64,000 nucleotides of DNA from Flavipsychrobacter sp. (lineage in GTDB: Bacteria; Bacteroidota; Bacteroidia; Chitinophagales; Chitinophagaceae): contig JAEUVZ010000032.1 in NCBI GenBank assembly GCA_016786665.1, positions 1 to 64,000 on the forward strand, read 5' to 3'. Of this stretch, positions 6,794 to 58,298 are shown piece by piece; position 1 is the stretch's first letter, and every line of letters starts with the position of its first letter. The translations under genes and the position numbers were made by a program. The notes beneath the pieces are model-generated. The model was given only the letters and a program-made list of their open reading frames with translations. It had not been told where the DNA came from and did no database searches.

Positions 6794-9700
6794 ATGAAGC
6801 GAAACCGTTTACTATTGTTAGTTATGGTACTATTTAGCTCGCTGGCCGCCCAGGCTCAGTGTGGTAAATATTACGTACAGGATATGGATCCCTGGAGTTC
6901 CACGTCCAATCAACAGGCAATGGACCAGGTGTTTGGCACGGGAGCATGGACCCAGGCTAACTATTCTACGTCCGTAGCCACTGTCTTTTCACCTTCCAAC
7001 TGCTTTGTGGTTCTGGAGGGAAGTGACAATAATCCTGCCCTGACTTCCTACATCACGAATAACCAGGCTGTCATCGAAAACTGGGTAGCCGCTGGTGGCC
7101 GCTTATTCATTAATTCAGCACCCAACACTGGCAGCACTGTAGGCCCTATGTTTGGTGGTGTGAGCATTGTTTATCCTGATTTCAGTGGCACGGGATCAGC
7201 ACCTAATACTTCCCACCCTATATTCCTGGGGCCCAACACCCCTACCGCTACTAGTTGGACTGGTGGTTCTTATTGCCATGCCAACGTCACGGGTACTGGT
7301 CTTACTTCTATAATGGATGGGGACCCGGGTAAGATGGGCTTAGGATACAAATTATGGGGCAGCGGCGTAGTCTTTTTTGGTGGAATGACTCAACCCCAGT
7401 TTTGGAGTCCACAACCGGAAAGCTATAATATGTGGAATAACATTTTCCACCACGTATGGAACTTCACCCTGACTGATATCACTGCCTCTATAGGTGCCAG
7501 TACTTATTGCGGTGGGGCTACCGACAACGTAACCTATACTTCGACTGGTGTTACGTTCAACACAGGCAACGTTTTCTCTGTAGAGCTGAGTGATGCCGCG
7601 GGCAGCTTCTCTACTCCTACTACTATAGGTACCTTAAGCAGCACATCTGCCAGCGGTTCTATTGCGGTTACTATCCCTACAGGTATAGGTGGCACCGGCT
7701 ACCGCATCCGCGTAGTTTCCAGCAACACTGCGTACACAGGTTCTAATAACGGCTCCAATATCGCTATCTCCAATGTTTCAGTGGTAAGCAACTCCCAAAC
7801 CAACGTATTATGTAACGGCGGTACTGGTTCTGCCAGTGTTACAGCGGGCAACGGTACAGGTTCCTACACCTATGCATGGTCTCCCTCAGGTGGTACCGCT
7901 TCCAGCGCTACCGGCCTTTCTGCGGGTAACTATACGGTGACCGTTACCGATGCGAACGCTACCAGCTGTACAGCTACACAGGCATTCACTATTACAGAGC
8001 CTGCAGTGCTGACACTCACTCCTTCTTCTACCAACGAAACTCCTTGTAACAACTCTAATAACGGTACTGCTTCCGTAACTATGACGGGCGGTACGGCTCC
8101 TTACACATATAGCTGGTCTACCGGCGCTACTACTTCCGGTATCACCGGCCTGGTAGCGGGTTCTTATACCGTGAATGTTACTGATAATAACCTTTGCGCA
8201 GCCAGCCACACTTTCACCATCACCGAACCTACTGTTATCACCGGTATACCTTCGCAAACCAATGTGAGCTGCAATGGCGGTTCCAATGGTACGGCTACTG
8301 TTATAGCGCAGGGCGGCGGTTCTCCTTTCTATGCATATAGCTGGGCCCCAACGGGCGGAACAGGTACTACTGCTTCCGGCCTCAGCGCGGGTAACTACAC
8401 GGTAACCATCACCAACGGTTTTGGTTGCACCGGCACGCAGACGTACACTATTACAGAGCCTACGGCTATCTCTATCGCTCCATCGCAAACCAACGTATTG
8501 TGTAATGGCGCTTCTACCGGTACGGCTACGGCTACTGTTACCGGTGGTTCAGGTTTCTACAGCTACTCCTGGGCTCCTACCGGTGGTACCGGTTCTACAG
8601 CCCTTAACCTGGCTGCAGGTACTTATACGGTAAGCGTTACAGACTTCAACTTCTGCTCTGCTTCACAGACGTACACTATTACACAACCTACCGCGCTCAC
8701 ACTTACTTCCGGTGGCCAGACCAACATCACCTGCAATGGTGGTAACAATGGTTCTGCTACCGTTTCTGTTTCCGGCGGTACGGGTGCGTACACTTACTCC
8801 TGGTCGCCCAACGGCGGTACTGCTGCTACAGCCAACAACCTGACTGCCGGCATGTACACCGTAACGGTTACAGATGCCAATAACTGCCAGGGTACTCTTA
8901 CCTACAACATTACCCAGCCTGCTGCTATGGCGGCTACCGGTTCGCAAACCAACGTAAGCTGTTTCGGCGGCGCTAACGGTTCTGCTACTGTAGCGGCCAC
9001 TGGTGGTACGCTTCCGTACACTTACTCCTGGGCTCCGTCAGGTGGCACCGCGGCTACGGCCAACGGTCTTTCTGCCGGCAACTACACCGTAACCGTGTCA
9101 GACTTCAACGGCTGTTCTGTTACGCACACGTATACTATTACACAGCCTTCGCAAATCTCTACACTGGGTGTGCAGACCAACGTGAGCTGCTTTGGCGGCG
9201 CTAACGGTTCTGCTACCGTACTGGCTACAGGCGGTACAGGCGCGTACACATACTCATGGGCTCCTGCCGGTGGTACCGGTACTACTGCCAATGGCCTCGC
9301 TGCCGGTACTTATACCGTTACCGTTACCGATGCTAACCTGTGTACGGCTACACGCACCTACAACATTACCGAGCCGGCGCAAATGCTGACCAACGCTACC
9401 GTTACCAATGTTTCTTGCTTCGGCCTGGGCAATGGTTCTATCACTACGGCTATGAGCGGTGGTGTTGCTCCTTACTCTTACTACTGGACTCCGAACGGAC
9501 AAACTGCTGCTTCTATCAGCAACCTGGTTCCCGGTAGCTACGCGGTAATTGTGACCGATGCGAACGCATGTAACATTACTCAGAACTTTACCATCACACA
9601 GCCTACCGTTCTTACCGCTTCAGGTACCCAAACCAACGTGAGCTGCTTTGGTGGCGCTAACGGTACCGCTACCGCTATACCTGCCGGTGGTACTGCTCCT

Positions 9701-12700
9701 TACAGTTACTCATGGGCTCCAACAGGTGGCACTGCTGCTACTGCTACGGGCTTAACCGCGGGTAACTATACAGCTACCGTTACCGACTTCAACGGTTGTA
9801 CTACTACACAGACATATACTATTACCGAGCCCACGCAGCTGGTTTCCGTTCCTTCACAGGTTAACGTATCGTGCAACAGTGGTTCTGATGGTTCTGCTAG
9901 CGTAGCGGTGTCCGGTGGTGTAGCTCCTTACACGTATGTATGGGCTCCTACAGGCGGTACTGCTGCTACAGCCAGCAACCTGGTATCTGCCGTTTATACC
10001 GTTACCATTACCGACTTCAATGGTTGTACACTGGTTAACACGTTCAACATTTCTCAGCCTACTTATCTCTCTACTACCGGCACACAGGTAAACGTAAGCT
10101 GCAACGGCGCTGCCGATGCTTCTGCTACCGTAATACCTGCAGGTGGTACCCCGGGCTATACGTATAGCTGGGCTCCTACAGGTGGTACCGCTGCTACAGC
10201 GTCTAACCTGGTACCGGGTACATATACCGTTACCGTTACCGACGCTAATGGCTGTACTGCTATCCGCACGTACAACGTCACTGAGCCTGCCGTACTGGTA
10301 TCTTCCGGTGCGCAGAGCAACGTACTGTGTAATGGTGGCGCCAGCGGCGCGGCTTCTATCACAGCTGTAGGCGGCACGCTTCCTTATTCTTACGACTGGC
10401 AGCCCGGCGGCATGAACACACCTTCTGTTACCGGCCTGGTAGCGGGTACTTATACCGCTACTGTTACCGATGCTAATGGTTGTATCACCGCACAGACATA
10501 TACTATCAGCGAACCTACGGCTATCACATACCAGGCTTCCCAGTCTAATGTATTGTGTAACGGCGGCGCTTCCGGTACAGCAACTATCGCTGTGGCTGGT
10601 GGTGTAGCTCCTTACACGTACAACTGGCTGCCTACAGGTGGTACTGCGGCTACTGAAACCGGCCTTACTGCCGGAACCTATACGGTAAACGTTACCGACG
10701 ACAACGGATGTATGGTATCGGAAGTGTACACCATTACTGAACCAGCGACGCTTACTGTATTTGCTACGGCCAACAGCCCTGTATGCAGCGGCCAGGATCT
10801 GAACCTGACGGGAACAGTGGCCGGTGGTACCGCTCCTTACAGCATGTCTTGGTATGGCCCTAACAACTATAGCTCATCTATGGCTATATCTACTATTTCC
10901 AACGTACAGGTAGCGGCGGCAGGTACTTATACCTTCTCCGTAACCGACAACAATGGTTGCGTATCTTCAGCGCTTACCGCCGTAGCGGTAAACGAAACAC
11001 CGCAGGTTACCACACAGCCTCAGCCTGTTACGGCCTGCTTCGGTACTTCAGCTAGCTTCAGCGTTACGGCTATCGGTACCGGTATCTCTTACCAGTGGCG
11101 CGCCAACGGTGCTAACATCCCTAATACAGGTGTGTACTCCGGCGCTAATACCAATACGCTGAATATCTCTGATGTAACCGGCCTCAACGGTATCGTGTAC
11201 GATGTGATTGTATCGGGCGTTTGTACTCCTGATACCAGCATTGGCGTAACACTTACCGCTCCTTCATTCAATACATGGACTGGTACGGTAGATACGGCAT
11301 GGTCTAATGCGGCTAACTGGCAGTGTGGTATAGTACCTACACTGGTTACCGATGCCATCATCCCTGCTTCTGCTCCTAAAATGCCACTGGTAGATATACC
11401 CGGTGCGCAGGCCAACAGTGTAACAATTAACTCCGGCGCTTCCCTGGCCTTTGTAGGTACAGGTAACGAACTGGAAATAGTAGCTGACATCACCAACCTG
11501 GGTACATTCAACCCTTCTCTGGGTGCAGTGAAGCTTTCCGGTACAGGTGCACAGTCTATTCCTGGTGGAACTTATGCTGAACTGGAGCTGGCAGGTAGCG
11601 GTGTAAAAACCACAACCGGCAATATAGCTATCACAGGTGCCCTGTTACTGAATGGAGGTTACCTGCAGCTGGGTGCCAACAACCTGACACTGACGGCTAC
11701 AGGTGGTGTATCTGGTGGTGACGCTTCTTCGTTCGTAGTTACCAACGGTACGGGTGTGTTCATCGCACAGGGCCTGGGTAACGGCGGTATCATAATGCCG
11801 GTTACGTTCCCTGTGGGTACTACTCCGGGCATCTATACTCCGGCTTCTATCCTGAACAGTGGTACTATCGACAACTTCAGCGTTCGCGTTATAGAGAATG
11901 TGTACTCTGACTATGTGAACGAAGTACCGGTAGGTGGTGCGCTGTCTTCTAACTCTGTTAAGAAGACCTGGTTCATCAACGAAGCGGTAGATGGTGGTTC
12001 TAACGCGGTAGTGTCTCTGTCATGGCCACTGAGCGAAGAGCTTCCCGGCTTCAACAACAGCCTGAGCGACGTATCGCACTACATTGAGGATTCCAGCAAC
12101 TGGAGCTCCGGCCCGGTTAGCCAGGCTACAGGTACAACTACCCTGTTTACGCAGAGCCGTCCTAACGTTACTTCTTTCTCTCCGTTCGGACTGGGTACGC
12201 AGAACAACCCGCTCAGCGTGAGCGCGGTTACCCTGGCTGGCGTGTACAATGTAGCTACACGTGCCGTAGACCTCACATGGGATAAGAGCAACGACAAAGA
12301 CGTAATAGCTTACTCCGTTGAGCGCTCGCTGAATGGAACCAGCTACAAGGCTATCGGCAACAGGTACGCTGGCGAAGATACCTACACGCTTTCTGACGTA
12401 GATGCGATGAGCCTCGGTACCAAGCAACTGTACTACCGTGTACGGGTGCTGAGCAACGATGGCTATGTATATTCTAATACCGTGAAAGTAGACCTGGGAA
12501 CCATGCTCGTTACTCATGGCATGACACTGTATCCAAATCCTGTTGCCGGCAGCGAACTGTTCGTGAGCCTGACCAACAACGCACTGGCTACCGATATGGA
12601 AGTATCAGTAGTAGACATGCTGGGTAAGGAAGTGTCTAAAGCACACTACGAGGCAGGTTCTTACAACCCGGCTGCTATACCGGTGAATGTATCCGACCTG

Positions 12701-25325: not shown

Positions 25326-25667
25326 TGCCCAACTATAAGGGGTGGTGAACACCCAATGCAAACAAAATACGCTATCCAAACACTCCCCTCCTTCCTTCGA
25401 CTGCGGTTCAGGATGACAGGGGGAGATGAAAAGTAAATTTTTCCCGGTCTTTTTTTGCTGAATGCGCCGTGGGCGCGGGTTTTGGATTTTCAAAAGTAAA
25501 TCCAGCTACCAGAAAGGTAAATCCAGCTACCAGCAAAGGTGCATTTTGGGTTAAGAAAAGTAAATTTTACTACGTGAAAGGTGAATTTTACTTCGTGTAA
25601 TTTCCATTTTTTGTTTTGTATCCCACCCGCTGGTTAGCGGGTGGTGTAGGGTGAAAGAAGCTGGTGG

Positions 25668-25880
25668 CGTGGGTGTTGGGTCGCCCCGACCCCCCTGAAG
25701 GGGGCTTTTCTTGGTTTGTGTATGTGTTGGCTGGGCAAATGGGCAAGAACGTGGGGTGAGGTTTCTTCGCTGCGCTCGCAAGGACGGTTGGGTAAGGATG
25801 ATTGGTGTAGGGTCGCCCCTAATCCCCTAAAGTGGGCTTTTCTTGGTTTGTGTATGTGTGTTGGCTGGGCAAGAACGTGG
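25668..25880 (+). repeat. Two ~80-90-bp direct repeats (about 85% identity) in a 900-bp noncoding gap
   Basis: Copy 1 is 25668-25760 and copy 2 is 25802-25880. Both contain ggtcgcccc...gggcttttcttggtttgtgtatgtgttggctgggcaa...gaacgtgg. A shorter duplicated 17-mer gtaaatccagctaccag lies at 25497 and 25518. Confidence 0.6.
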
Positions 25881-26247
25881 TTTGCAGGTGTTATTGTCCT
25901 ATGATTACGGGAGACTTATATGGATTCTCGCAGTGACAGCCTAAGGAATTCGTTTAGTGCTTGCTGCCGTGTTTTTACAAATTTACGGAGTTGGCGGAAG
26001 TTGGGGTGAATAACATATCCACATAGAAACGTGACAAACGCTGTTCCGGTGGCATCTTTGTAGCAAACGAGGGCGAGGTGAGAATTAAAATGAACAAACC
26101 ATTACCAGCAAGGTGATAGCCCCTGTTTTCAATGAATTGTTGGGGTGGCTTTAATGGTTGATGTCGTAGTGTTTTTTAGTAAACTCGCCCCTCCTTTGCA
26201 TTGGCACATGCTTTGCATTATCTTTCGTGCATCAACCGGTATAGGAT

Positions 26248-32697: not shown

Positions 32698-32736
32698 AAT
32701 ATTGCCGCCGGAGAATCTGGCGGCAATATTTATTTA
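32698..32736. terminator. Bidirectional terminator between ndh and the DUF3800 gene
   Basis: 12-bp perfect stem aatattgccgcc/ggcggcaatatt with T-runs on both sides. The stem abuts the stop codon of the minus-strand gene. Confidence 0.7.
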
Positions 32737-33521
32737 GGGTAAAATACAACCCCATACTCATTTTTATAAGATGCTTTCAAATTAAATATGGGTTTTAGAA
32801 TTGCGAGCAGGCTTAATAAATCCTCTTCGGCTAATACGTTCTTAATTCTCTTCCCCCATTCAATTTTCGGGTTACATAACCTTGTTTTACAGTAAAGTTG
32901 CATTATAAATGCAAGTAAGTCGGCAGCTTGAATGAAATAAGAGTCTTTTGAGTTTTTTGATAACGGATCTTCAATAAGCTTCTTAATGTCTTTTCTAATT
33001 GGCGTACCATCCAACATAGACGGTACGTAATTTATTTTTTGAATCATTCTCGTAGTTCGGCGCATCGCTGCAACTCTCCCTTCATCGGTAATAATCATAA
33101 ACCTTGCATCATCTCCCATTACGGTTAAATCATTTTCTATTCTTTGAACGCTGTAAGTAAGCGCTTTTTCTAACACCTCATACTCAGGTCGGTTAATCCC
33201 TCTTTTATTAATGCAGACAGTAACCAATTTAAAATTTAGAGTTGCTAATCCCCGGCAGTAATCGAACAGCATCTCTTTCCTTTGCTGAGGGGTAAAAAGT
33301 CCGTGATACGGATTCTTGTCTGTAATGAACTCTTTGGTATGAAACTCCTGGCTGACATTAAGGCCATACTTCGCCTTAAGCATTTTTCTTATCCCGTGCA
33401 TCCCCTCATAGTTCCGCTTCCAGTTACTTTCGTGCATATAAAGATTTGCCAGCACAAACAGCTCAGAGGACATTTGCGGATACCCATCATCTCCGGACTC
33501 ATCGAAGTAACTTAAAAACAT
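32730..33521 (-). CDS. DUF3800-like protein (hypothetical, AT-rich singleton)
   Basis: N-terminal MFLSYFDESGDDGYP matches the Y(I/F)DESG signature of DUF3800. Local GC is clearly lower than the flanking genes. Confidence 0.55.
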   Translation of the reverse strand: MFLSYFDESGDDGYPQMSSELFVLANLYMHESNWKRNYEGMHGIRKMLKAKYGLNVSQEFHTKEFITDKNPYHGLFTPQQRKEMLFDYCRGLATLNFKLVTVCINKRGINRPEYEVLEKALTYSVQRIENDLTVMGDDARFMIITDEGRVAAMRRTTRMIQKINYVPSMLDGTPIRKDIKKLIEDPLSKNSKDSYFIQAADLLAFIMQLYCKTRLCNPKIEWGKRIKNVLAEEDLLSLLAILKPIFNLKASYKNEYGVVFYPK

Positions 33522-37256: not shown

Positions 37257-37649
37257 TCAGCTATCCACCTGGCCTCCTAACACAAAGTGCGGATTATAAA
37301 TAATCCCAAACACGTTGCCCCAGGGGTCCTTCACCGCTGCCACCACTATATCCCCGCCCACATCCGTGGGTGGCTCGTGTGCCGTAGCCCCCTTGGCGAG
37401 CAGCATATCATACACCTCCTGCACCCGCTCCACACCCCAGTAGGTGGTAGCAGTATCCGGGCGGCTGTTATCCACTGCATCCTCTGCTGATAGCCCCAGC
37501 TCAAACCCGCCTACATTAAACCCCACATAGAAGGGCATATCAAAATAAGGCGCTACACCCAGTACATCGGCATACCAGTTTTTGGCGGCCGTTATATCCG
37601 TTACCTTATAGTTTAGCGTGCGCAGCCCCAGGAATGGTGTTTGGTTCAT
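37257..37649 (-). CDS. VOC family protein (glyoxalase/bleomycin-resistance fold)
   Basis: ~130 aa; betaalphabetabetabeta modules with ...HEPPTDVGGDIVVAAVKDPWGNVFGI.... Confidence 0.7.
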   Translation of the reverse strand: MNQTPFLGLRTLNYKVTDITAAKNWYADVLGVAPYFDMPFYVGFNVGGFELGLSAEDAVDNSRPDTATTYWGVERVQEVYDMLLAKGATAHEPPTDVGGDIVVAAVKDPWGNVFGIIYNPHFVLGGQVDS

Positions 37650-37796
37650 CTTTTATAAAGGCGTGTTTTTAAATCACGCCTGCGGGTAAAATTACCCCAT
37701 CCAACCGTAACCACCATTGGCCCACGCCGCATGATATCCACATAAAAGCGTTCCGCCTAATCATCAGGGCGCCACCCTGTCGCCCTTGCGAGCGCA

Positions 37797-37833
37797 GCAA
37801 CTGTTCTCATGGAGCGCAGCGGAATAATCTCAC
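37797..37833. repeat. Left copy of a 37-bp imperfect inverted repeat bounding the tRNA-Lys-adjacent islet
   Basis: gcaactgttctcatggagcgcagcggaataatctcac. The reverse complement matches 40956-40992 at ~32/37 positions. Confidence 0.6.
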
Positions 37834-38037
37834 GCCTCGTTCTTGCTCATGAAAGCTTACCTGAAAGTCTGCCTCTATTGAGGAGATATGCCGTAAAATA
37901 AAGATCAGCACCCGCCTGGAACTGGCCATATTTGCTATAAGAGTTGGCATTGCACCATATAATGAAATGAATGCATCGCTCGCGAGATAAAATCAGCCTC
38001 ACTGTATTTCGCAGTAAGGCTGATTACTTTATTTTTT

Positions 38038-38090
38038 AGCCGATCTGGAGATTGGCCACCACTACGACGTAGAGAAACTCTACGCCGAAC
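38038..38090 (+). repeat. Solo 3'-end fragment of the mosaic hairpin repeat (S3 end)
   Basis: gccgatctggagattggccaccactacgacgtagagaaactctacgccgaa matches the 3' ends of repeat copies A and B. Confidence 0.6.
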
Positions 38091-38159
38091 TATCAATAAT
38101 GGTCAGAAATTACGCTGACCGTGGTTGTTTTTACCATAGAATGCGGAGTGAGGGTCAGA

Positions 38160-38684
38160 CTATCCTAAATGTGATTCCTCAACATATTTATCTATAAATC
38201 TTGGCCAGTCATTGTGAGGAATTAATTGATTAATTTCTAAACAGACTTTTTGAATAATTGAAAGTGACACTTTAGCAAACCGAACGTCCTGCCTTACTCC
38301 ATTCAATAACTTATCCCATACAAAAAGATAATTCGGAGCTTCATATACTGCACTTATTAGCCATGGGTCAAAATTTTCTCCTAAAAACAAATTGTGTCTG
38401 TCTTCATGAATCTGTTCTTTTGTGAACTTTTTCTTCGAAGTCCCCTCATCATTTAGTCTATAAAAGATAGCGCTTGGCGACAGTTCTCTTAAATTATTAT
38501 TTTCAAACAACAAAAAGTCCTTTGCTAATTTGTTTAAGGTTTTAATAAAAGGAGCTATCCTTTCAATACTGTCAAAGATTCCAATTTCTTCGCCATCTAT
38601 ATACAGGCAGGTTTTACCCATTAAAGGTTGGGACTTTATTATGACAATTTTAGCAGCAAATATGTCACTATTTCCATTTATCAT
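38160..38684 (-). CDS. Hypothetical cytoplasmic protein, AT-rich cassette ORF (immunity-protein-like)
   Basis: 174 aa with no TM or signal peptide. GC is far below the genome background. It is flanked by the mosaic repeat. Confidence 0.5.
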   Translation of the reverse strand: MINGNSDIFAAKIVIIKSQPLMGKTCLYIDGEEIGIFDSIERIAPFIKTLNKLAKDFLLFENNNLRELSPSAIFYRLNDEGTSKKKFTKEQIHEDRHNLFLGENFDPWLISAVYEAPNYLFVWDKLLNGVRQDVRFAKVSLSIIQKVCLEINQLIPHNDWPRFIDKYVEESHLG

Positions 38685-38781: not shown

Positions 38782-39211
38782 TCGAACCACCCCGCTTGGC
38801 GTAGTCTCTGACTACGTCGAAACCGGCTGTCAATCTCCTGATTGACGAAATTCTTTACTCATACCTATCACACAATTTAAAATGAATTTCACAGGCGCGG
38901 GAGCTTGCAGAGCGCTCCCGTGTCTGCATGGGTAAACCGGACTTTGCCCGGCTGCACAACCACCGATACTGTCGTTCTTTGGCGGAAGCGTCCCGCTTGC
39001 GGAAATGAAGTTAATTAATAATCCGTGGTTTCCTGGGATTGCTACGCGGGTCGGAGACTCGTTTTACTGGGTGGGCACAGGAGCCTCGCTCAACACAGTT
39101 GTTCGGGCAGGCGCTGCGCTAACTCCTGCGCCAGTGGGCGCAATGAAGCTGATAGTGTTTGTATTACTCGCCGATCTGGAGATCGGCCACCATAGCGACG
39201 TAGAGGAACTC
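38782..39211 (+). repeat. Mosaic hairpin-rich repeat, copy A (modules S1+S2+S3, complete with TIR-like ends)
   Basis: It begins t.ggcgtagTCtctGActacgtcg and ends gcgacgtagAGgaaCTctacgcc.a. The two ends are an inverted pair with covarying stem bases. Inside is a string of 6-8-bp-stem hairpins (gtcaatc/gattgac, cgggag/ctcccg, ccggac/gtccgg, tgcgcc/ggcgca, gccgatct/agatcggc). Confidence 0.7.
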
Positions 39212-39247
39212 TACGCCAAACTAGGGGTTGAGATAATGCGCATATGG

Positions 39248-39652
39248 TTATTTTGTGTAATTCAGTATCCAACTTAAACTATCTGGGAATTGATAATTGA
39301 ATGCTTCAAAGTCTCTTTTTATAATAAGAATTAAATTATTTGAGGGTCTTTGTGGATGATAAACTACCGGAAAATATCTGTTAAGAAAATATTCATCACA
39401 GTCAGCAGGGCTTAGGCTAGAAGTATTGATTGATGTAGACCCTTTATATTCTTGATTGCTTAATGTAAAGGTGTAATCAATCGAGATACTTCCACCACGC
39501 CCACGTCCCCCATAAGTACATTTTGTTATTCGTCCTCCATTAATTATATTATTATTCTCTCGCAACTCTTTAGATAGCTTAATGCCCCAAAAATAAAATG
39601 GTGTTATCACAACCACGGCGAACAAAGTTATCATTAATACTTTCCTTTTCAT
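39248..39652 (-). CDS. Small membrane-anchored hypothetical protein (N-terminal TM helix; ..VYHPQRPSNN.. C-terminal motif, DUF3592-like); paralog of 40263..40655
   Basis: 134 aa, AT-rich; MKRKVLMITLFAVVVITPFYFWGI forms a TM anchor. It shares G+I.K...SI.I.Y.F.L and VY.P..P.NN.ILI....Y/FN...PDSL.W motifs with the next cassette ORF. Confidence 0.55.
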   Translation of the reverse strand: MKRKVLMITLFAVVVITPFYFWGIKLSKELRENNNIINGGRITKCTYGGRGRGGSISIDYTFTLSNQEYKGSTSINTSSLSPADCDEYFLNRYFPVVYHPQRPSNNLILIIKRDFEAFNYQFPDSLSWILNYTK

Positions 39653-39716
39653 AAGTGTATCTATTTTGCTTTTCCAGTTGTATCATCAATCTTGTTCGTA
39701 ACAGTTTGAATAATTA

Positions 39717-40050
39717 CCTCACTGGCGCGGGAGTTAGCAAAGCGCTCCCGTGTCTATATGGGTAAACCGGACTTTGTCCGGCTGCACAACCACCGATAAC
39801 GGCGTTCGCTAGCCGAAGCGTCCCGCTTTCGGAAATGAAGTTAATTAATAATCCGTGGTTTCCTGGGATTGCTGCGCGGGTCGGAGACCCGTTTTGCTGG
39901 GTGGGCACAGGAGCCTCGCTCAACGCAGTTGTTCGGGCAGGCGCTGCGCTAACTCCTGCGCCAGTGGGCGCAATGAAGCTGATAGTGTTTGTATTACTCG
40001 CCGATCTGGAGATCGGCCACCGGTGCGACGTAGAGAAACTCTACGCCGAG
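39717..40050 (+). repeat. Mosaic hairpin-rich repeat, copy B (modules S2+S3)
   Basis: ~90% identical to the S2+S3 part of copy A. It ends with the same TIR-like hairpin gcgacgtagagaaactctacgccgag. Confidence 0.7.
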
Positions 40051-40262
40051 TGAGGGAAGCAGCAGAATGATTTCTTAGATTGACGAACCCCGTTGCTCAT
40101 ACCCGCAGTTTTTATTCTATAACAATCTACTATTAAAATAAAACATCCTTACTGAATAAACAGTAAGGACGTTTGTTGAAAGACATTCTCTTTCTAGCTC
40201 AAGATTATTCGAACTAGGAACATTACTTATGTCAGAATAAATTGAAGTTTTGATGCCCAAGA

Positions 40263-40655
40263 TTATTGAGTAAAGTATTGTTCAACCCAATACAAACTAT
40301 CTGGTTTTTTTAAATTATAATATTCATAATCCTCATCAGTTATTAGTATTTCGTTATTCTTAGGATTCTTCGGCTCATATACAATGGTAAAAAAATGCCC
40401 AACAAATTTATTTTCCCAATTAATAGATATATTAGTATAAGATTTAGTGTTTCTGTAAACTTTATCATTTAAATTAAATTGATATACAATAACGATTGAA
40501 GACCGCTTAGATACACTATTGAATTTGATTACCTTACCTGTGGAAAAAGACGGAGAATTTTTTATTTTACCTCGCTTCTCTTGTAGATGATATGTCCAAA
40601 AAACACCTGCAATTAGAAGACATAATATGACAATCCATGTTTCCCTTTTTTTCAT
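40263..40655 (-). CDS. Small membrane-anchored hypothetical protein (N-terminal TM helix; ..VYEPKNPKNN.. motif); paralog of 39248..39652
   Basis: 130 aa from ATG 40655 (MKKRETWIVILCLLIAGVFW). The longer track ORF runs into the repeat and is closed upstream by TAA. AT-rich. Confidence 0.55.
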   Translation of the reverse strand: MKKRETWIVILCLLIAGVFWTYHLQEKRGKIKNSPSFSTGKVIKFNSVSKRSSIVIVYQFNLNDKVYRNTKSYTNISINWENKFVGHFFTIVYEPKNPKNNEILITDEDYEYYNLKKPDSLYWVEQYFTQ

Positions 40656-40696
40656 GAGTTTTACTTTTTTGTAACAGTAGTAACGCTTTTTATGCC

Positions 40697-40945
40697 CCCG
40701 CTCGGCGTAGTCTCTGACTGCGTCGAAACCGGTTGTCAATCTCCAGATTGACGAAACTCTTTACTCATACCTATCACACAATTTAAAATGAATCTCACTG
40801 GCGCGGGAGTTAGCGATAGCGCTCCCGTGTCGGCATAGGTAAACCGGACCTTGTCCGGCTGCACAACCACCGATACTGTCGTTCTTTGGCGGAAGCGTCC
40901 CGCTTGCGGAAATGAAGTTAATTAATAATCCGTGGTTTCCTGGGA
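40697..40945 (+). repeat. Mosaic hairpin-rich repeat, copy C (modules S1+S2)
   Basis: ~90% identical to the S1+S2 part of copy A. It starts with the TIR-like hairpin ggcgtagtctctgactgcgtcg. Confidence 0.7.
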
Positions 40946-40955
40946 GAAGAAGCTG

Positions 40956-40992
40956 GTGAGGTTATTCCGCTGTGCTCCATGAGGAAAGTTGC
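40956..40992. repeat. Right copy of the 37-bp imperfect inverted repeat bounding the islet
   Basis: gtgaggttattccgctgtgctccatgaggaaagttgc is the reverse complement of 37797-37833, with ~5 mismatches. Confidence 0.6.
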
Positions 40993-41149
40993 ATCGCCAG
41001 ATCGAATTTGAGACAGGCGCCATAGACCAATGCACTGAATCGGTTCTATCAGTTTCACTGCCACCTCTCACGAGATTTCTCTCTTCACTACGTTGTACTC
41101 CATTTCGTTTGAAATGAGGGCGTAGATGGGGCTGGGTGGACTTGATGCA

Positions 41150-41183
41150 AAAAATAAGGATTGCACTTGTGCAATCCTTATTT
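41150..41183 (-). terminator. Rho-independent terminator immediately 3' of tRNA-Lys
   Basis: On the minus strand: aaggattgcac-aagt-gcaatcctt followed by attttttg. Confidence 0.8.
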
Positions 41184-41186
41184 GTG

Positions 41187-41259
<73 letters not shown>

Positions 41260-43143: not shown

Positions 43144-43702
43144 GGGGTAAAGGTACAGGATTGCGCGGAGTGGAGGGGATAGTATGGGCTGTAAGGGAGC
43201 GTTGAGGTGCCGCTATCAGCGGGGTGTTTTTTATGTGGATAAGCGCGAGGAATGTAAAAATGTAATCTATTGGTTATCAATATTTTAAGAAAATTATAGT
43301 TACATTTTACTATCATTTACTTACATCGTAGTGGCAGGATAGCATCAGACACTTACAGTTTGCCAACAGACAGTTTCAGGATAGGGACAGACAACAGCAG
43401 ACAGTTTCATTTTAGTTACATTTTTGTTTTAATGTGTTGGTTTAGTTTGTTTTATACTTGCGATGTAAATTTACTAAGATTTGCGGGCCTGGCAAATAAT
43501 GATATGCACAGTGGGGCAGCGTGGGTGGCTGCTGAGGTTCCTGCTATGGCAGGAATAGGCCGGCCGCAGACCGGTTTATTTATTGTGGCGGGGGTCTTCC
43601 GGAGGATGACGCGTGGGAGTGGGGGGAGGTGATATCCACATGTTGGCAGTTGCAAACTGCGGTTATTTGTTACCACAAGTTTCAAACTTGCGGTAGGGGG
43701 GG

Positions 43703-43906
43703 CACGGTATCGTTGACTATACAGGCGGCGAATACGTACGGGGCAAGATTCACACTAATAGCATTGAAGGCTTTTGGTCACAACTGAAGCGCGGTATCAT
43801 TGGTACATTTCATTCTGTATCACATAAGCATTTACAACGCTATTGCGACGAGTTTGCTCATAGACATAACAACAGGTCGTTAAGCCACAGAACGCTTCGC
43901 AAATAG
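43703..43906 (+). pseudogene. C-terminal remnant of an IS1595-family (ISXO2-like) transposase
   Basis: Translation HGIVDYTGGEYVRGKIHTNSIEGFWSQLKRGIIGTFHSVSHKHLQRYCDEFAHRHNNR matches the conserved IS1595 DDE C-terminus (N.IEGFWS.LKR...G.YH.VS.KHL..Y.DEF.FR.N). There is no start codon or N-terminal part. Confidence 0.7.
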
Positions 43907-44171: not shown

Positions 44172-44513
44172 ATGAACTCCATACGCACAATAGGTAAGCA
44201 CCAGATTTTATCACTCAATGTGAGTGTATTGGTGTTCCAGGAGGAAGGCTATTTTATAGCTTTCTGCCCTGCCTTGAAGCTGTCTTCTTATGGAGATAGT
44301 ATCGAGGATGCTAAGGAAGGTTTTGAGGAAGTAATTACCGCCTATATCGAGGAAACTCAAAGGCAAGGAACGCTTAATGAAGACCTGACAAAGCATGGAT
44401 GGGTTTTTCATTCTAAACAGGTTTTCCCTCCCGAGCAAGTTGATATAGACAATATCCCAGCAGGCTTACTTAAAAGGCAATTTAACCAGAGGTACGAAAT
44501 ACCTGTCTGCTAA
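44172..44513 (+). CDS. hicB: Type II TA antitoxin, HicB family
   Basis: UPF0150/HicB pattern VLVFQEEGYFIAFCPALKLSSYGDSIEDAKEGFEEVI. The stop directly abuts the hicA start codon. Confidence 0.65.
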   Translation: MNSIRTIGKHQILSLNVSVLVFQEEGYFIAFCPALKLSSYGDSIEDAKEGFEEVITAYIEETQRQGTLNEDLTKHGWVFHSKQVFPPEQVDIDNIPAGLLKRQFNQRYEIPVC

Positions 44514-44759
44514 ATGGGAATTAAGCCGATACCCGTAGATAAATTTGTAAGGTGGCTAGAAAGTCGAGGTTTGTCCTATCAAAGGACAAAGGCTTCGCAT
44601 GACCATTATAATTACCCAGAGCGCGACCCTAGAAGGCTCACCCGCAATGTTACCGTCCGCACAAAATATAAGGACATACCCCTGTTTCACATTCACACCA
44701 ATTTACAGACGATGGGGGTTACAAAGGCTGAATTTGAATCCGAAATAAAGTACTTCTAA
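44514..44759 (+). CDS. hicA: Type II TA toxin, HicA family mRNA interferase
   Basis: 81 aa with a ..GW...R.KASH.....P.....VTV..H...IP....NLQTMGV pattern like HicA (GSH..., V.VP.H). Confidence 0.65.
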   Translation: MGIKPIPVDKFVRWLESRGLSYQRTKASHDHYNYPERDPRRLTRNVTVRTKYKDIPLFHIHTNLQTMGVTKAEFESEIKYF

Positions 44760-44807
44760 CCATTGGTGTCAATGCGGTTACGTGTAATTAGGTATAGTTA
44801 CCCTCGA

Positions 44808-44986
44808 GAGGGGGTAGGGCTATGTAGCTTGTCTGCTACCTCTCAACAAACCACCTCCCCCTGCGCCCGGCCGGATGAACTATCCGTTCGGGCTGGGGTA
44901 CTCCTCGTTATTCGCTATCGCTCATGAGAAAAGTTGAAGGAAGGAGGAGCGCTTATTTTTTGGTTTTGTCACATTACCAACACATT
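44808..44986 (+). repeat. Direct repeat copy 1 in the deaD upstream region
   Basis: ~150 nt are shared with 45200-45346 (atgtagcttg...ctcaacaa.ccacctccccctgcgcccg.ccggatgaactatccgttcgggctggggtactcct...aaggaaggaggag.gcttatttt.ggttttgtcacattaccaacacatt). Copy 1 carries an extra 28-nt insertion. Confidence 0.7.
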
Positions 44987-45199
44987 CCTCCCCAGCCGTA
45001 TCTCTGCACAGCAGGACACGGCGGCATCACAGGAACTCAGCTGAGAGGAAGCTTCTACTCGCATCTGCCGTGTCCCGTTCAGGAGGCACGGCTGGCGTAA
45101 AAAAACAACACGAGTCCATGAGTCCGGGTTAGATTGCTTCGTGCCTCGCAATGACGTGAGTAGGGAGGCTGGTGCTGAGGTGTGCGACGCAACGATGTA

Positions 45200-45346
45200 G
45201 AGTAGGGGGATGTAGCTTGGTCACTACTTCTCAACAACCACCTCCCCCTGCGCCCGCCCGGATGAACTATCCGTTCGGGCTGGGGTACTCCTCCTTGAAG
45301 GAAGGAGGAGAGCTTATTTTGGGTTTTGTCACATTACCAACACATT
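45200..45346 (+). repeat. Direct repeat copy 2 in the deaD upstream region (contains ctcctcc/ggaggag hairpin)
   Basis: See copy 1. It ends ~85 nt before the deaD ATG. Confidence 0.7.
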
Positions 45347-45430
45347 AACACAATCCTTAAAATAAAATGGGGAAAGACGGAATAATAGGTGTACCTTTGC
45401 GGCTCATTTAGTAAAACAGATCTTAATTTA

Positions 45431-47867: not shown

Positions 47868-47884
47868 TGTAACCCGCTTCCTCG

Positions 47885-48052
47885 CCCAAGATACCAGGGA
47901 TTATTATTTAACTTCATTTTCGCAAGCGGGATGCTTTGGCCAGTGAACGACGGTATCAGTGTTTGTGCGGCCGGACAAAGTCCGGTTTGCATATGCAGAT
48001 ATGGGAGCCTCGCTCAATGCAGTTGTTCGGCCAGGCGCTGCGCTAACTCCCG
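47885..48052. repeat. Mosaic hairpin repeat fragment (inverted S2 piece fused to forward S3 piece)
   Basis: 47885-47935 is the reverse complement of the S2 3' end (aacttcattttcgcaagcgggatgctt). 47971-48050 has ccggacaaagtccgg and ggagcctcgctcaatgcagttgttcgg.caggcgctgcgctaactcc, matching S2/S3. Confidence 0.6.
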
Positions 48053-48149
48053 GGTAAGTGAGGGGGGATTAGTACCTAAGCGAATGTTACAAAAATGTTC
48101 CTTTCTTGTAACATTCAACCTTTGCGTCGTACAATAACAATGTTTATAC

Positions 48150-48539
48150 CTATTTTATCCAACTAAAACTTCTTACGTAACTTACCCAAATGGGGCGTTG
48201 CATGTCTTTTTCGTCTTCGAATGGTAATACCCCTCCTGTGTCGCAATTGCCAGTAAGTAGGCTGTCAATTTCCAATAGAAACGTACCAAAGTCTTGATAA
48301 ACATCATCGTTATGTTCAACTAAATCTCTAACTAGGAAAAAAATATCCTTACGTTTCCACCCTTCAACAATTAATCCTAAAATCCTATCGTATATAGATC
48401 TTTCAAACTTTTCGGGCTGATTGCCATTTGTTAAATTGTTTTTGACTTCAGTCAAAATTCCCTCTTTTATATTTTCATAGTTTTCAGGTAAGCCAGTAAT
48501 ATTCTCTTTTAAGAAAGAAAAGTCTCCAAAATTTTGCAT
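48150..48539 (-). CDS. Hypothetical cytoplasmic protein, AT-rich orphan cassette ORF
   Basis: 129 aa, low GC, no TM. It is bracketed by mosaic-repeat fragments, like the cassettes at 38-41 kb. Confidence 0.5.
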   Translation of the reverse strand: MQNFGDFSFLKENITGLPENYENIKEGILTEVKNNLTNGNQPEKFERSIYDRILGLIVEGWKRKDIFFLVRDLVEHNDDVYQDFGTFLLEIDSLLTGNCDTGGVLPFEDEKDMQRPIWVSYVRSFSWIK

Positions 48540-48611
48540 ATCATGCTGTTTAGAGTTGAAATTAATTAAATGGTATCTATCTAACAGAGTTTAGTAGACT
48601 TTGATATTCCC

Positions 48612-48710
48612 CCACTGGCTAGGAGTTAGCGATAGCGCTCCTGTGCGCACCCGGTAAAATGGGTCTCCGACGCGTGTAAGCCATAGTGGTGGAAGCGTCT
48701 AGCTTCCGAA
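48612..48710 (+). repeat. Degenerate mosaic hairpin repeat fragment (S2-like)
   Basis: cactggctaggagttagcgatagcgctcctgtg...ggtaaaatgggtctccgacg...ggaagcgtctagcttccgaag parallels the S2 module. Confidence 0.5.
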
Positions 48711-48866
48711 GAACTATGCCTCCTAACTATAAGCAATAAAGCCCGGAACTGCTTTTGGACATGCGTTTCCCATTGCCCGGTTCGTACTTATTATCCGGCC
48801 TGGTGTGCATATGTGTATAATAAGGGTAGGTTAATAAAATAGCGCACTATATATTTGGATGCAAAC

Positions 48867-53256: not shown

Positions 53257-54354
53257 CTATTTGATGGAAGTGCTACCGTTGTTTCTATCCATGTAGATAG
53301 CCAATTTTTCATAGAGCATTTTCTTGATATAATTTTCCATGTAGTGATAATCAGGTTGTCCTGTGTGGTTTATTGGTAACATAATTTTTAAGACTTTTAA
53401 TCTTTGGTTGTTGATGGAATAACCATGACCAAATTTGCCTCTCTGAGCTGTAATGCATCGTGATATATACAGCAAAACAAATTCGCTCAATTTATTTTTG
53501 GGGAATAGAGACGTAACGTGATTATCTAGTAAGTAATCACTAGGTTGGTAAAATGAAATGCCTGCGCCACCATCTCCATCATTGTTCAGTGTCAAACTTT
53601 TTTTTGCATAGAGTTTTTTGTTTGATTGAGTTGCAAAGTCTTTATAGCCATTTTCTCCTTTTTTTGCTGAGACCAATGGGATATTCCCTTTTTTAATACT
53701 CATCATGTTATTTTGATCGCCTTTCTCAAAATCAAATAAATCAACTATCTTAAACTCTCCCCACGCTTTTTTTTCAATAGGCTCAACTGGTTTAAAGTCT
53801 TTTAATATTATGAGACGTTTGCTTATGTAGTTGTGGTATTCCTGTAGTTTCTGTTGCTGCTTCTGTAGCATATACTGCTCCATAAAAGCATAATCAGGTT
53901 TGCCTTTTAAATCTACTGGTAAAAGAATTTTACTTCGCTTTAGTCTTGTAAGTGTTGCACCATTGCCGCCCCAACTAAATTTCTCCATTTGTTTTTTTAT
54001 CAATGGGATTATAAATTGAGAAGTAAAATGATTCAGGTTGTCGTTTGACAATATTTGAATATTCTGTCCTGTGTAGAATGAATTAGATTGATAAAAAACC
54101 GTTTGAGTGTCTAATCCAATAGTAATGACATTTTTGCTGTCCTGCTTAAATTTTTCATCCTGAACGCCAACAAAAAAATCGATACCATTATTTTTATCAG
54201 ACCTTGTTATATATGGTATATCCCCCTTTTTGTTATTTAATTTATTTTTGTCAATTCCACTACTTGTAGAATAGATTTTGAAAATGTCTTCGAAAACGAA
54301 TTCACTCCAACTAGTTTTTTTTAGGTCCATTTTTTGAAGCTTATTGGTTCTCAA
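53257..54354 (-). CDS. Restriction-modification specificity subunit (HsdS-like; BcgI-B-like) with two target-recognition half-repeats
   Basis: Two TRD + conserved-helix modules (GATLTRLKRSKILLPVDLKGKPDYAFMEQYM.. and GYSINNQRLKVLKIMLPINHTGQPDYHYMENYI..). AT-rich. It overlaps the upstream MTase gene by 14 nt. Confidence 0.8.
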   Translation of the reverse strand: MRTNKLQKMDLKKTSWSEFVFEDIFKIYSTSSGIDKNKLNNKKGDIPYITRSDKNNGIDFFVGVQDEKFKQDSKNVITIGLDTQTVFYQSNSFYTGQNIQILSNDNLNHFTSQFIIPLIKKQMEKFSWGGNGATLTRLKRSKILLPVDLKGKPDYAFMEQYMLQKQQQKLQEYHNYISKRLIILKDFKPVEPIEKKAWGEFKIVDLFDFEKGDQNNMMSIKKGNIPLVSAKKGENGYKDFATQSNKKLYAKKSLTLNNDGDGGAGISFYQPSDYLLDNHVTSLFPKNKLSEFVLLYISRCITAQRGKFGHGYSINNQRLKVLKIMLPINHTGQPDYHYMENYIKKMLYEKLAIYMDRNNGSTSIK

Positions 54355-56260
54355 ATAAATAACTTCTTCCTTGCATTATCATGCTAAACTCAAAAGTAAG
54401 ATAGTCGGCAATCGTTTTTTCGAAGTCTTCAGCTTTGGGAGTTTCGTCATTAAAATAATAAAACGAGTGTAACCATTCGTCTTCGGGTTCAATGGTAGTC
54501 CTAACCATAAATTTGCTTTCTGATGGTTTGTCATGTAGCCAACAGTCGAGCAAGTGAGCCTTTTGAGATTTTGCTCTAGTTGTTTCTACCAAACCAATAT
54601 GCTTGCTCACTATAAAGCCATCATCTTCATAGTTAACGAATTTACAGTGCTTTTTATCTGAGTGTGGTTTGTGTGCTGTAAAGATTGCTATACAAGGATT
54701 TGTACCTACACCATAAAAAGTATTTTTGTTTAAAGTAATTACGCCTTCTAGTGTATGATTATTGAGAATTTGTTTTTTTATAGCTTTGTCTTCTTTTGTT
54801 TTACCGACCATTGTGGACTGCGGTACGATAGCGACACATCTGCCATTTTCAGCCAAACTATCTAACAAATGTTTTATAAAATTGATTTCGGATAGATGCG
54901 CTGTGTCTTTGCCTTTTGCTTGTGAATACGGTGGATTTATAAAGCCAACGGAGTAATTGTTCTTTCGTAAATCTTCCGCTCTGCGCCTTAAAAAATCGTC
55001 TTTTATTAAGTTGCTTTTCCCATCTCCACGCAGAATCATATTGGTCGTAGCAATGGCAAACATGTCTTCGCGAATTTCAATTCCGTGAATATGCTCTTTT
55101 TTGATTTTGTCCTTCTCTTTCCCCTTGGCCTCGTTTAGCATTTTGTGCATACCTGCAATCAGAAAGCCGCCAGTACCACAACAAGGATCAAAAACTCTAT
55201 CAGAAGGTTTTAAGTCAATGATTTCTGAGAATAATTCTGTTATATGTTTGGGTGTCAGAACAACCCCTAATGTTTGTCCATCACCACCACTATACCGAAT
55301 AAATTCTCCATAAAAACGTCCTAGAACATCTTCGGTAGAGTTCGAAGTAACAGAAGATAGAATGTTCTTCTGAATGTATTCAGCAAAGTATTTTAAAGGC
55401 GTTTTTTCTAAATAATTGTTTTTCGAAATTTCAACTTTTAATCTTTCGTCTTTTTGGTTTAGTAAAGTCCTGTCTTTGATTAACGTAAATTGATTTAAAA
55501 CTTGATTTTTCTTTACTTCAGGTTGTACTTCAACTCTTGTCATATGTGTTGTAAGCGCATCAAATATTTTCTGTCCATCTGTCTTTAGAGTATCTCCTGA
55601 CAAGGAGTCAATTGTGAATGATTCTTCACTTAGTGCTAGTAAGATGGCCGATACAACTAAGGGTTTTTCAGAATCACCGAGCTGCCCATAGTTACGTAGT
55701 GCTTCGTGCAGCTCAGAAGATTTTTTTAATATATCTTCCAGCTCTAGCGTTTCCTGTGGGGTTTCTCCTAATACTTGTTCCTTGTAATACTTCTCGATGT
55801 TTGCACTTGAAAAATTCTCAAAATTCTCTACCTTTTCGAGTAGTTTGTAGCCTGCCTTATTTACAAATATTGGTCTAACTATGTGGTGCTTTTCGTCCCC
55901 TGAGCAGCCAAACGCGAATATTTTTTTAAAGCTGGTTTTCTGTAAAATTTCATTTGCGTAAAAAAGTGCTCCATTTTCGGCGTAGTTGGTAACTGCCTTT
56001 TTCTCAATTGAGAGAATTTGTTTGTCTTCGTCAGCATACAAAACCTGTTTTTCAAGTGCAGATTTGTTTTCAATAACGAGTATAAAGTCTTTGGAAATTG
56101 CTACGAATTCAGGAAAGCCTGATTTTCCAGTTCCTTTTTTGGAAGCTGTCTTTAATGCTTGCTGTATTTCTTTTATGTCGCTTCCGTTCGGAGTGTAACT
56201 GATGTCCGCACTTTCAAGAAGTCTACTTATAAATATGTCAGTTTTTTTTTCGTTGGCCAT
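54341..56260 (-). CDS. Fused PD-(D/E)xK nuclease / N6-adenine DNA methyltransferase (BcgI-A-like type IIB R-M subunit)
   Basis: N-terminal ..GFPEFVAISKDFILVIENK (PE...ExK nuclease motif). MTase motif I is VFDPCCGTGGFL and motif IV is NPPY. At 639 aa with a ~365-aa S subunit and no separate HsdR, it resembles the BcgIA (637 aa) / BcgIB (341 aa) pair. Confidence 0.65.
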   Translation of the reverse strand: MANEKKTDIFISRLLESADISYTPNGSDIKEIQQALKTASKKGTGKSGFPEFVAISKDFILVIENKSALEKQVLYADEDKQILSIEKKAVTNYAENGALFYANEILQKTSFKKIFAFGCSGDEKHHIVRPIFVNKAGYKLLEKVENFENFSSANIEKYYKEQVLGETPQETLELEDILKKSSELHEALRNYGQLGDSEKPLVVSAILLALSEESFTIDSLSGDTLKTDGQKIFDALTTHMTRVEVQPEVKKNQVLNQFTLIKDRTLLNQKDERLKVEISKNNYLEKTPLKYFAEYIQKNILSSVTSNSTEDVLGRFYGEFIRYSGGDGQTLGVVLTPKHITELFSEIIDLKPSDRVFDPCCGTGGFLIAGMHKMLNEAKGKEKDKIKKEHIHGIEIREDMFAIATTNMILRGDGKSNLIKDDFLRRRAEDLRKNNYSVGFINPPYSQAKGKDTAHLSEINFIKHLLDSLAENGRCVAIVPQSTMVGKTKEDKAIKKQILNNHTLEGVITLNKNTFYGVGTNPCIAIFTAHKPHSDKKHCKFVNYEDDGFIVSKHIGLVETTRAKSQKAHLLDCWLHDKPSESKFMVRTTIEPEDEWLHSFYYFNDETPKAEDFEKTIADYLTFEFSMIMQGRSYLFENQ

Positions 56261-57653: not shown

Positions 57654-58001
57654 TTATATAATTTCTACCAAGTCAAAGCCTGACTTTGTTATCAGGTCAA
57701 TAGACTGTTGGAATGAAGAATAAAGTTTCGTTTTTAAATCGGCATTAGATATGTTGCCAACGCCCAAAAATATTATGGCCGGAGGCGCTTTAAGTTGGTT
57801 AAGTAGCTTAATGTAATCTTTATCTTTCGTTATGAAAATTGCGTTTGCCTTTTTTGCTTTCATGAAGATGCTGTAGTCAGTTTCTATGAAAAAGTCAAGC
57901 TTATACGAAGAAACGGCCTCAACATCGAAAGTTTGATTAAGCCATTTGCAGATAGATGCTGAAATGTGAACATCCATCCATATCAATGGTTTAGGCCGCA
58001 T
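57654..58001 (-). CDS. DUF5615-family PIN-like protein (putative TA toxin)
   Basis: 115 aa, AT-rich. It overlaps the upstream DUF433 gene and lies 2 nt from the pgk start. Confidence 0.5.
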
Positions 58002-58234
58002 GGACGATGGCTGTGTTATTAACAGTCATTGATGCGTATAAAAGGCAAGCGGTAATGTCCTCCTTTTCGAGTATAGGATGCTCTTCAAGAATCAATTCCG
58101 CACTCATACCGTTGGCAAGCATTTCCAGTACATCAATAACACGAAAACGCATCCCCCTTATTATCGGCTTACCGCTGAAGATACCAGGGTTGTTCGTAAT
58201 GCGTTTTAAAAGCTGGTCTATTTCTGCCTGTGTC
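57991..58234 (-). CDS. DUF433 domain protein (putative antitoxin partner)
   Basis: MTQAEIDQLLKRITNNPGIFSGKPIIRGMRFRVIDVLEMLANGMSAELILEEHPILEKEDITACLLYA matches the DUF433 pattern (GKP.I.GTR..V..VL..L..G.S.EEIL..YP.L..EDI.A.L.YA). Confidence 0.6.
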
Positions 58235-58298
58235 ATAGGTATAAAATTACAATAAAAAACAGAGCCTCCCAAAAGGAGGCTCTGTTTCTGATTTATAC

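Follow-up and report, generated by a model that had tools for sequence, protein, structure and literature searches.

We describe a family of hairpin-rich, non-coding repeats and the small genes that they flank in a 64-kb window of one metagenome-assembled genome (MAG) of a Flavipsychrobacter sp. (Chitinophagaceae). All of the evidence comes from this window, the whole stretch of DNA that was analysed, and coordinates refer to it throughout. The repeats form an array in which GC-rich (~55%) non-coding DNA alternates with AT-rich (31-33% GC) small genes, all on the minus strand. The array lies between a glyoxalase gene (37257-37649, minus strand), which marks its left border, and a tRNA-Lys(CTT) gene (41186..41259, minus strand) plus a DEAD-box helicase gene on its right. 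A second island with the same architecture, consisting of two repeat copies around one gene, is found 7 kb off. All six copies or fragments of the repeat in the 64 kb flank four co-oriented genes of 31-34% GC, and none was found in the other intergenic regions of the window. Our tentative proposal is that this is a small array of cassettes carrying orphan immunity genes, in which the repeats would be the conserved, non-coding modules at the junctions.

The four genes, which we refer to as cassette genes, are each on the minus strand. Gene 1 (38160..38684) encodes 174 amino acids (aa) at 32% GC and its product is predicted to be immunity-like. Gene 2 (39248..39652) encodes 134 aa at 33% GC, with an N-terminal hydrophobic segment and a weak match to DUF3592. 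Gene 3 (40263..40655) encodes 130 aa, counted from its ATG, at 31% GC and has its own terminator hairpin at 40141-40174. Gene 4, the gene of the second island (48150..48539), encodes 129 aa at 34% GC and has no detectable relatives. The right end of a repeat follows each of genes 1-3 within 27-205 nt.

The repeats are modular foldback elements

The complete copy of the repeat, copy A (38790..39223, plus strand), is a foldback element of 431-434 nt made up of modules S1, S2 and S3. Its left-end hairpins occupy 38798-38847 and S1 runs up to 38888. These are followed by the inner inverted repeat IRL with a GGGAGC hairpin (38889-38921), a core, the inner inverted repeat IRR (39111-39143) and the S3 tail, which carries the right-end hairpins (39170-39217). 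Copy B (39702..40056, plus strand) is 94% identical to A and consists of the final ~16 nt of S1 followed by S2 and S3; an orphan S1 fragment of 27 nt (AGATTGACGAACCCCGTTGCTCATACC; 40077..40103, plus strand) lies 20 nt past its right end. Copy C (40695..40957, plus strand) contains S1 and S2, with S3 replaced by a terminal extension, GAGAAGAAGCTGG, an array-end variant that is also present in copy E of the second island. Copy D (38010..38092, plus strand) is an S3 tail only, 68 nt beyond the stop codon of gene 1, and bears the right-end hairpins GCCGATC/GATTGGC and CGTAGAG/CTCTACG. A preliminary description of this region, made from the sequence before our analysis, had assigned S1+S2+S3 to A, S2+S3 to B and S1+S2 to C; we found these modules in place, though B retains the short S1 remnant.

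Identity among the copies ranges from 83 to 97%; the copies around genes 2 and 3 exceed 90%, and copy E is the 83%-identical one. Their GC content of ~55% is host-like (genome, 50-55%). All copies of the first island share a single orientation relative to the genes. Identity within S2 is patchy, with A nearer to C than to its neighbour B, and differences cluster at 38969-38999.

The two ends of copy A form an inverted pair, and the end sequences given in the preliminary description are exact: GGCGTAGTCTCTGACTACGTCG is present at 38798-38819 and CGACGTAGAGGAACTCTACGCC at 39196-39217, with 0 matches in shuffled sequence. The terminal inverted repeats span ~55 nt, their arms are 75-81% complementary, and each end holds two perfect 7-bp hairpins (CGTAGTC/GACTACG and GTCAATC/GATTGAC on the left; GCCGATC/GATCGGC and CGTAGAG/CTCTACG on the right). 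Inside the element, a 26-nt inverted pair with arms IRL (CACTGGCGCGGGAGTTAGC...) and IRR (...GCTAACTCCTGCGCCAGTG) surrounds ~200 nt. Copy A aligns over its full length to its own reverse complement (E 1e-8), which makes it a global foldback. A ~10-nt motif, CYCRCT(N)GGCG, and then a 7-bp hairpin make up each of four sites: the left end and IRL, which point in one direction, and IRR and the right end, which point in the other. The 431-nt unit is, in these terms, four motif-plus-hairpin sites and the DNA between them. As the four sites stand in opposed pairs, each gene is enclosed by nested inverted repeats. The GGGAG-loop-CTCCC hairpin, described earlier as having a variable loop, was recovered in A, B and C and also in copy F of the second island, at 48622.

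The repeat is a chain of short perfect hairpins, as had been described, and their density is above chance in a shuffle test: copy A contains 6 perfect hairpins whose stems reach 6 bp or more, compared to 0.56 ± 0.8 in shuffled sequences. The repeat windows are the most hairpin-rich of the whole 64 kb, and folding z-scores relative to shuffles were -4.7 for one strand and -4.5 for the other. The element is spanned by no open frame. Where A and B differ within its longest open reading frame (ORF; 39005-39277), the change is mostly at codon position 1, and the frame terminates early in B, which bears out the earlier claim that the element is non-coding and that its frames are not conserved between copies. 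We also considered a coding sequence or the remnant of a toxin gene, and ruled this out on the grounds that substitutions show no third-position bias and no frame is open throughout.

Rearrangement breakpoints fall on internal repeats

The copies of the second island record an inversion. In copy E (47872..48066, plus strand), S2 is reversed (47885-48008) and joined at GGAGC to a direct S3-head plus IRR (48004-48060), and the copy terminates in AAGTGAGGGGGG. Copy F (48606..48712, plus strand) contains the reciprocal junction, in which CCCCC and the 5' arm of the IRL/hairpin, 20/20 identical to C, are joined at GCTCC to the reverse complement of the S3-head (48637-48678), followed by diverged S2 remnants. 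Between them, E and F preserve the two reciprocal junctions left when the gene-bearing segment of 628 bp was inverted, both within the inverted repeat GCTCC(C/T)GTG. Reversing this inversion gives back the architecture of the first island, including an array-terminal copy of S2 plus extension like C, and both islands end in the same S2-terminal variant.

Losses of modules have similar boundaries. S1 is missing from copy B and the S3 tail from copy E, and both new boundaries lie on the shared motif; the boundary of copy F is likewise a hybrid of the left end (LE) and IRL (F, CCCCCACTGG; E, AAGTGAGGGGGG). As the module losses and the inversion breakpoints both map to short internal repeats, we conclude that the internal repeats are recombinogenic.

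Cassette genes and borders of the array

Searches of Pfam, NCBIfam and PADLOC with genes 1-4 directly returned nothing significant, and a concatenated query of genes 1, 3 and 4 had no match. Gene 1 belongs to a small family of remote relatives, in which 5 of 11 members match Pfam Imm42. A structural model of its product (predicted local distance difference test, pLDDT, 84) matches the CdiI immunity protein 5FFP (E 1.5e-6, TM-score 0.56-0.62). Judged by its family and by this model, gene 1 is immunity-like. In another Bacteroidota MAG, a relative of gene 1 occurs by itself as an AT-rich insert, and no repeats accompany it. Genes 2 and 3 are paralogues with 27% identity, and the N-terminal hydrophobic segments of their predicted products look like membrane anchors; gene 2 has no relatives on record beyond itself. 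For genes 1 and 4, no similarity to the other cassette genes was detected. No family or fold could be assigned to genes 2-4, the single-sequence model of gene 4 being poor.

At the right border, we considered integration of the island at tRNA-Lys and rejected it, as the far end of the array contains no tRNA-derived direct repeat that could represent an attachment site. Directly after tRNA-Lys, at 41152-41183, a perfect 15-bp hairpin with a T-run on the minus strand resembles a tRNA terminator. Given this likely terminator, simple read-through from the tRNA promoter at ~41283 probably does not account for transcription of the array. The spacer between copy C and tRNA-Lys (41027-41159, minus strand) gave a sub-threshold Rfam match to group II intron D1-D4 (16.6 bits, E 2.5) that is probably due to chance. 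Group IIC introns target attC-like hairpins.

The array is also enclosed by copies of a second repeat family, R2 (core GAGCGCAGCGGAATAAYCTCAC), which is unrelated to the hairpin repeat. R2 copies at 37792-37850 (plus strand) and 40956-40997 (minus strand) are inverted relative to each other, are 86% identical over 42 nt and enclose the whole array, the right one abutting the end of copy C. A third R2 copy, at 25739-25793 (minus strand), lies within a long non-coding stretch (25600-25900) that has internal duplications (GGGTCGCCCC...CTTTTCTTGGTTTGTGTATGTGT, twice) and several small hairpins.

The repeats as possible junctions of a cassette array

Our tentative preference for junction modules draws on the pattern of conservation across the locus: repeats that are 83-97% identical stand next to genes that have no detected relationship or are only 27% identical, which is, by analogy with integrons, an attC-like junction pattern. 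We find that the repeats fit cassette-array junction sites better than independently inserted miniature inverted-repeat transposable elements (MITEs) or a trans-acting RNA, because they are tied exclusively to low-GC co-oriented genes, because the junctions are conserved between such dissimilar genes, because their orientation is constant and because the array-end variant is shared. The preliminary description had named a recombination site in passing. This is the option that we favour, as every copy lies beside an AT-rich small gene of the array (one of these genes being immunity-like).

If the repeats are junctions, the sites would be recombination substrates for inserting, deleting and flipping cassettes, with the gene for the recombinase at another place in the genome. 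Hairpin extrusion might take place from single-stranded or supercoiled DNA, as in integron attC sites and as is suspected for the intergenic motifs of rAID-1 arrays (recombinase-associated acquired interbacterial defence). We infer that an enzyme would act on these sites, that their folded form would be relevant to its action and that the cassettes would have arrived by this route. A more specific proposal is that the locus represents an undescribed, integron-analogous cassette platform of Chitinophagaceae, in which an unlinked enzyme would act on giant foldback sites of four sub-sites each and thereby capture, delete and flip orphan immunity genes; we regard this as improbable.

Several observations weigh against the repeats being cassette junctions. 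We found no recombinase, HUH nuclease or intact transposase in Pfam scans of ten larger ORFs and the island-adjacent ORFs, a subset of the ORFs in the window. The sole transposase trace in these scanned ORFs was a C-terminal fragment of an IS1595/ISXO2-type transposase (43697-43906, plus strand; Pfam E 8e-16), and no intact gene accompanies it. The copies differ in extent (full, lacking S1, lacking S3, or tail only), which is not what precise site-specific exchange predicts, and only one of the four cassette genes is immunity-like so far. We defined the CYCRCT(N)GGCG boundary motif only after the junctions had been seen, and its enrichment is therefore not independent evidence. The deletions and the inversion could arise by slippage or homologous exchange at short repeats with no enzyme involved, and the compensated stem pairs described below could also come from template switching within near-palindromes.

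In addition, no second genome with the repeat was found, and hence no empty site or cassette turnover was seen. An exact 30-mer S2 probe had 0 matches in GTDB representative genomes, three probes had 0 matches in IMG/VR, and blastn against plasmids and phages returned nothing. A 19-mer probe gave 11 matches in JGI metagenomes, all of them chance matches of ~20 nt. There was no similarity to the repeat in 80 helicase-anchored loci from related Bacteroidota, and the loci of the closest relatives (helicase 81-83% identical) do not share the gene order and contain neither the tRNA nor the repeat.

Possible independent insertion of a mobile element

Alternatively, the repeat could be a selfish foldback or MITE-like element that is non-autonomous and built of modules, as are pneumococcal BOX and Neisseria Correia elements; after repeated insertions into an AT-rich island, it would have decayed through internal deletions. 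We consider this possible, though on balance unlikely. It would account for the ~55-nt terminal inverted repeats and the alignment of the element to its own reverse complement, for its non-coding nature, for a GC content that resembles the host and differs from that of the genes, and for the partial and modular state of the copies, and their 83-97% identity would suggest recent spread. However, we saw no target-site duplication at the boundaries of copies A, B and C, a check that the preliminary description had proposed; neither the flanks of A (GTCGAACCA / TTGAGATAA) nor those of C contain a direct repeat. Insertion at random would also not lead one to expect one special S2-terminal variant at the ends of both islands. 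The four copies of the first island share an orientation, and the other intergenic regions of the 64 kb are devoid of copies. No autonomous partner was found, and the surroundings of the IS1595 fragment do not match the element ends by eye. The MITE proposed in the preliminary description is thus not borne out in the form in which it was put forward, lacking target-site duplications, dispersed copies in the 64 kb, varied orientation in the first island and a matching autonomous element.

Covariation and a possible role as RNA

Another explanation is that the repeat acts in cis in a polycistronic immunity transcript, as a stabiliser like a repetitive extragenic palindrome (REP) or bacterial interspersed mosaic element (BIME), as a processing site or as a partial terminator, or that its plus strand yields an antisense RNA. 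We think that such a role is quite unlikely. A stable GC-rich chain of hairpins between co-oriented genes would suit it, and a search of the element for the canonical Bacteroidetes promoter motif TAnnTTTG found none, which fits co-transcription; the hairpins, however, lack U-tracts. S1 contains a sigma-70-like site aimed into S2 on the plus strand, yet Bacteroidota are not known to use sigma-70-type promoters.

Covariation gave a divided result. It had been claimed that structure rather than sequence is conserved in the pair of ends, and this is true of the terminal hairpins: the left-end and right-end stems differ at four pairs, and every one of these differences is compensated (4/4). Single-step intermediates are found as T-G in copy C and G-T in copy D, and these G-T intermediates would be tolerated on the plus strand. 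The interior of the element showed no such pattern: when copy E was added to the comparison of S2, there was no compensatory pair, several pairs were broken and the covariation term was unfavourable. RNAalifold applied to A and B returned zero broken pairs on the plus strand and, with a different fold, equally on the minus strand. As both strands gave this result, we regard it as an artefact that arises when a structure is fitted to just two sequences, and a strand assignment based on it was dropped. IRL varies between copies and IRR does not. A conserved long-range IRL-IRR helix was rejected, since the variation in IRL is unmatched in IRR; the same observation favours a local hairpin. RNA and DNA roles, and the strand involved, cannot be distinguished from these folds.

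A search of Rfam with the repeats matched no family: gathering thresholds returned only the tRNA, and at E up to 10 there was nothing credible within the repeats. Considering this result, the lack of covariation in S2 and the equal fit of both strands, the structured non-coding RNA suggested in the preliminary description is not supported.

Least probable of all, and to our minds very unlikely, is a functionless by-product, an intergenic stretch that segmental duplication would have copied together with genes, that gene conversion would have kept similar and whose near-palindromes template switching would have perfected: the patchy identity of S2 (A closer to C than to B), the clustering of differences at 38969-38999 and the rearrangements at short repeats would agree with it, but the second island 7 kb off has the same architecture, the hairpin density is extreme for this genome, and the flanked genes are unrelated, as far as detected, or 27% identical, so that they were not duplicated together with the repeats.

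Other features of the window

Several different intergenic repeat families are present in this genome. Besides the hairpin repeat and R2, direct copies of a ~120-nt sequence (GTAGCTTG...CTCAACAA..CACCTCCCCCTGCGCCCG..CCGGATGAACTATCCGTTCGGGCTGGGGTACTCCTC) lie at 44780-44960 and 45195-45320, upstream of the DEAD-box helicase gene at 45389. The repeat statistics of the window are dominated by very large genes (3300-11000, plus strand) composed of 228-231-nt tandem units with ~60-75% identity, which we take, by analogy with SprB/CHU_C genes in related loci, to be SprB-like adhesin repeats.

AT-rich genes also occur outside the two islands. A lone AT-rich (38% GC) DUF3800 gene (32730-33521, minus strand) is located among housekeeping genes with no repeat beside it, and the repeat is thus not tied to every imported gene in the window. 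Two AT-rich genes that have no Pfam match form a small module (44172-44759) beside the IS1595 fragment. An AT-rich island (33-36% GC; 53257-56260, minus strand) encodes the specificity and methylase subunits of a type I restriction-modification system and has no flanking hairpin repeat. An AT-rich pair of DUF433 and DUF5615 genes (57654-58272, minus strand), inserted with the phosphoglycerate kinase (PGK) gene on one side and the glyceraldehyde-3-phosphate dehydrogenase (GAPDH) gene on the other, can be read as a candidate toxin-antitoxin-like module.

Significance

The repeat family is genuine and out of the ordinary, its setting is suggestive, and the mechanism proposed for it is a hypothesis. 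If the repeat were an ordinary dispersed MITE, the finding would be routine. How polyimmunity and rAID arrays acquire genes has been stated to be unresolved (PMC12247911), and how integron cassettes are joined to their sites is unknown in the literature (PMC4889954). The locus described here lies outside Bacteroidales, can be read base by base, and has elaborate junctions and visible scars of rearrangement. Its small size, together with these junctions and scars, makes it a tractable place to seek recombination sites and, through the sites, the enzyme. Were the repeats part of an undescribed cassette platform, the assembly of rAID-like and polyimmunity arrays could be approached through them at the level of sequence.

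Comparison with known systems

Like BOX, Correia, BIME, REP and REPIN elements, the repeat is non-coding, combines its modules in varying ways, has inverted ends that fold and has a host-like GC content, and its terminal stems contain GTAG/CTAC, as do the feet of REPs. Unlike BOX, Correia and REP-type elements, it is much longer, is tied to cassette genes and shows no target-site duplication. Each of its hairpins differs in sequence, in contrast to the single repeated palindromic unit (20-40 nt) of REP and REPIN elements, and no partner of the kind associated with these elements or with MITEs (a REP-associated tyrosine transposase, RAYT, or a transposase) was found in the scanned ORFs of the window.

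The locus shares with the invertons and shufflons of Bacteroidota the presence of 26-nt inverted repeats around ~200 bp, the enclosure of each gene by inverted repeats, and the inversion of one gene-bearing segment with both junctions in an inverted repeat. It differs from them in that each locus has one fixed arrangement here, the inversion being between paralogous islands; no invertase was found in the scanned ORFs, and no promoter was identified inside the segment.

The comparison with integrons is closer. Clusters of attC sites lacking integrases (CALINs), that is, cassette clusters without a nearby integrase, are common. As in CALINs and integrons, the array consists of mostly orphan, unrelated, co-oriented genes, each followed by a conserved, foldable, imperfect inverted-repeat site; the sites are far more similar than the genes, and an integrase may be absent nearby. 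Integron attC sites are ~57-141 nt long and have the ends RYYYAAC ... GTTRRRY. The element described here is 431 nt long, and its ends, CCCCGCTTGGCGTAG ... CTACGCCAAACTAGGGG, contain neither RYYYAAC nor GTTRRRY. A GTTGAGA sequence follows copy A only and falls outside the attC consensus, with nothing similar after B and D. The local hairpins are perfect here, in contrast to the R/L-box pairing with extrahelical bases of attC, the copies are unequal in length, and Pfam scans of the ORFs listed above found no intI.

The rAID-1 arrays of Bacteroidales comprise low-GC co-oriented immunity genes, with conserved motifs "reminiscent of integrons" between them; XerC/D recombinases are often found beside polyimmunity loci. 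The present locus resembles rAID-1 and polyimmunity loci in its co-oriented short genes with a GC content far below that of the genome (31-33%, plus 34% in the second island), in having at least one gene that appears immunity-like and, by description, in its conserved repeats between genes. In rAID-1, a tyrosine recombinase of the XerD family is encoded upstream of the array and in the orientation of its genes. The present locus differs in that the scanned ORFs adjoining the array or within ~20 kb contain no tyrosine recombinase, in its host, which belongs to Chitinophagaceae and not to Bacteroidales, in the very small size of the array (3+1 genes) and in its junctions, which are foldback units of 250-430 nt and not short motifs. 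Because the defining recombinase was not found, the element departs from attC in consensus and size, and the taxon differs, we conclude that the locus belongs to neither rAID-1 nor CALINs, and that rAID-1/polyimmunity arrays and CALINs are nevertheless the closest described systems.

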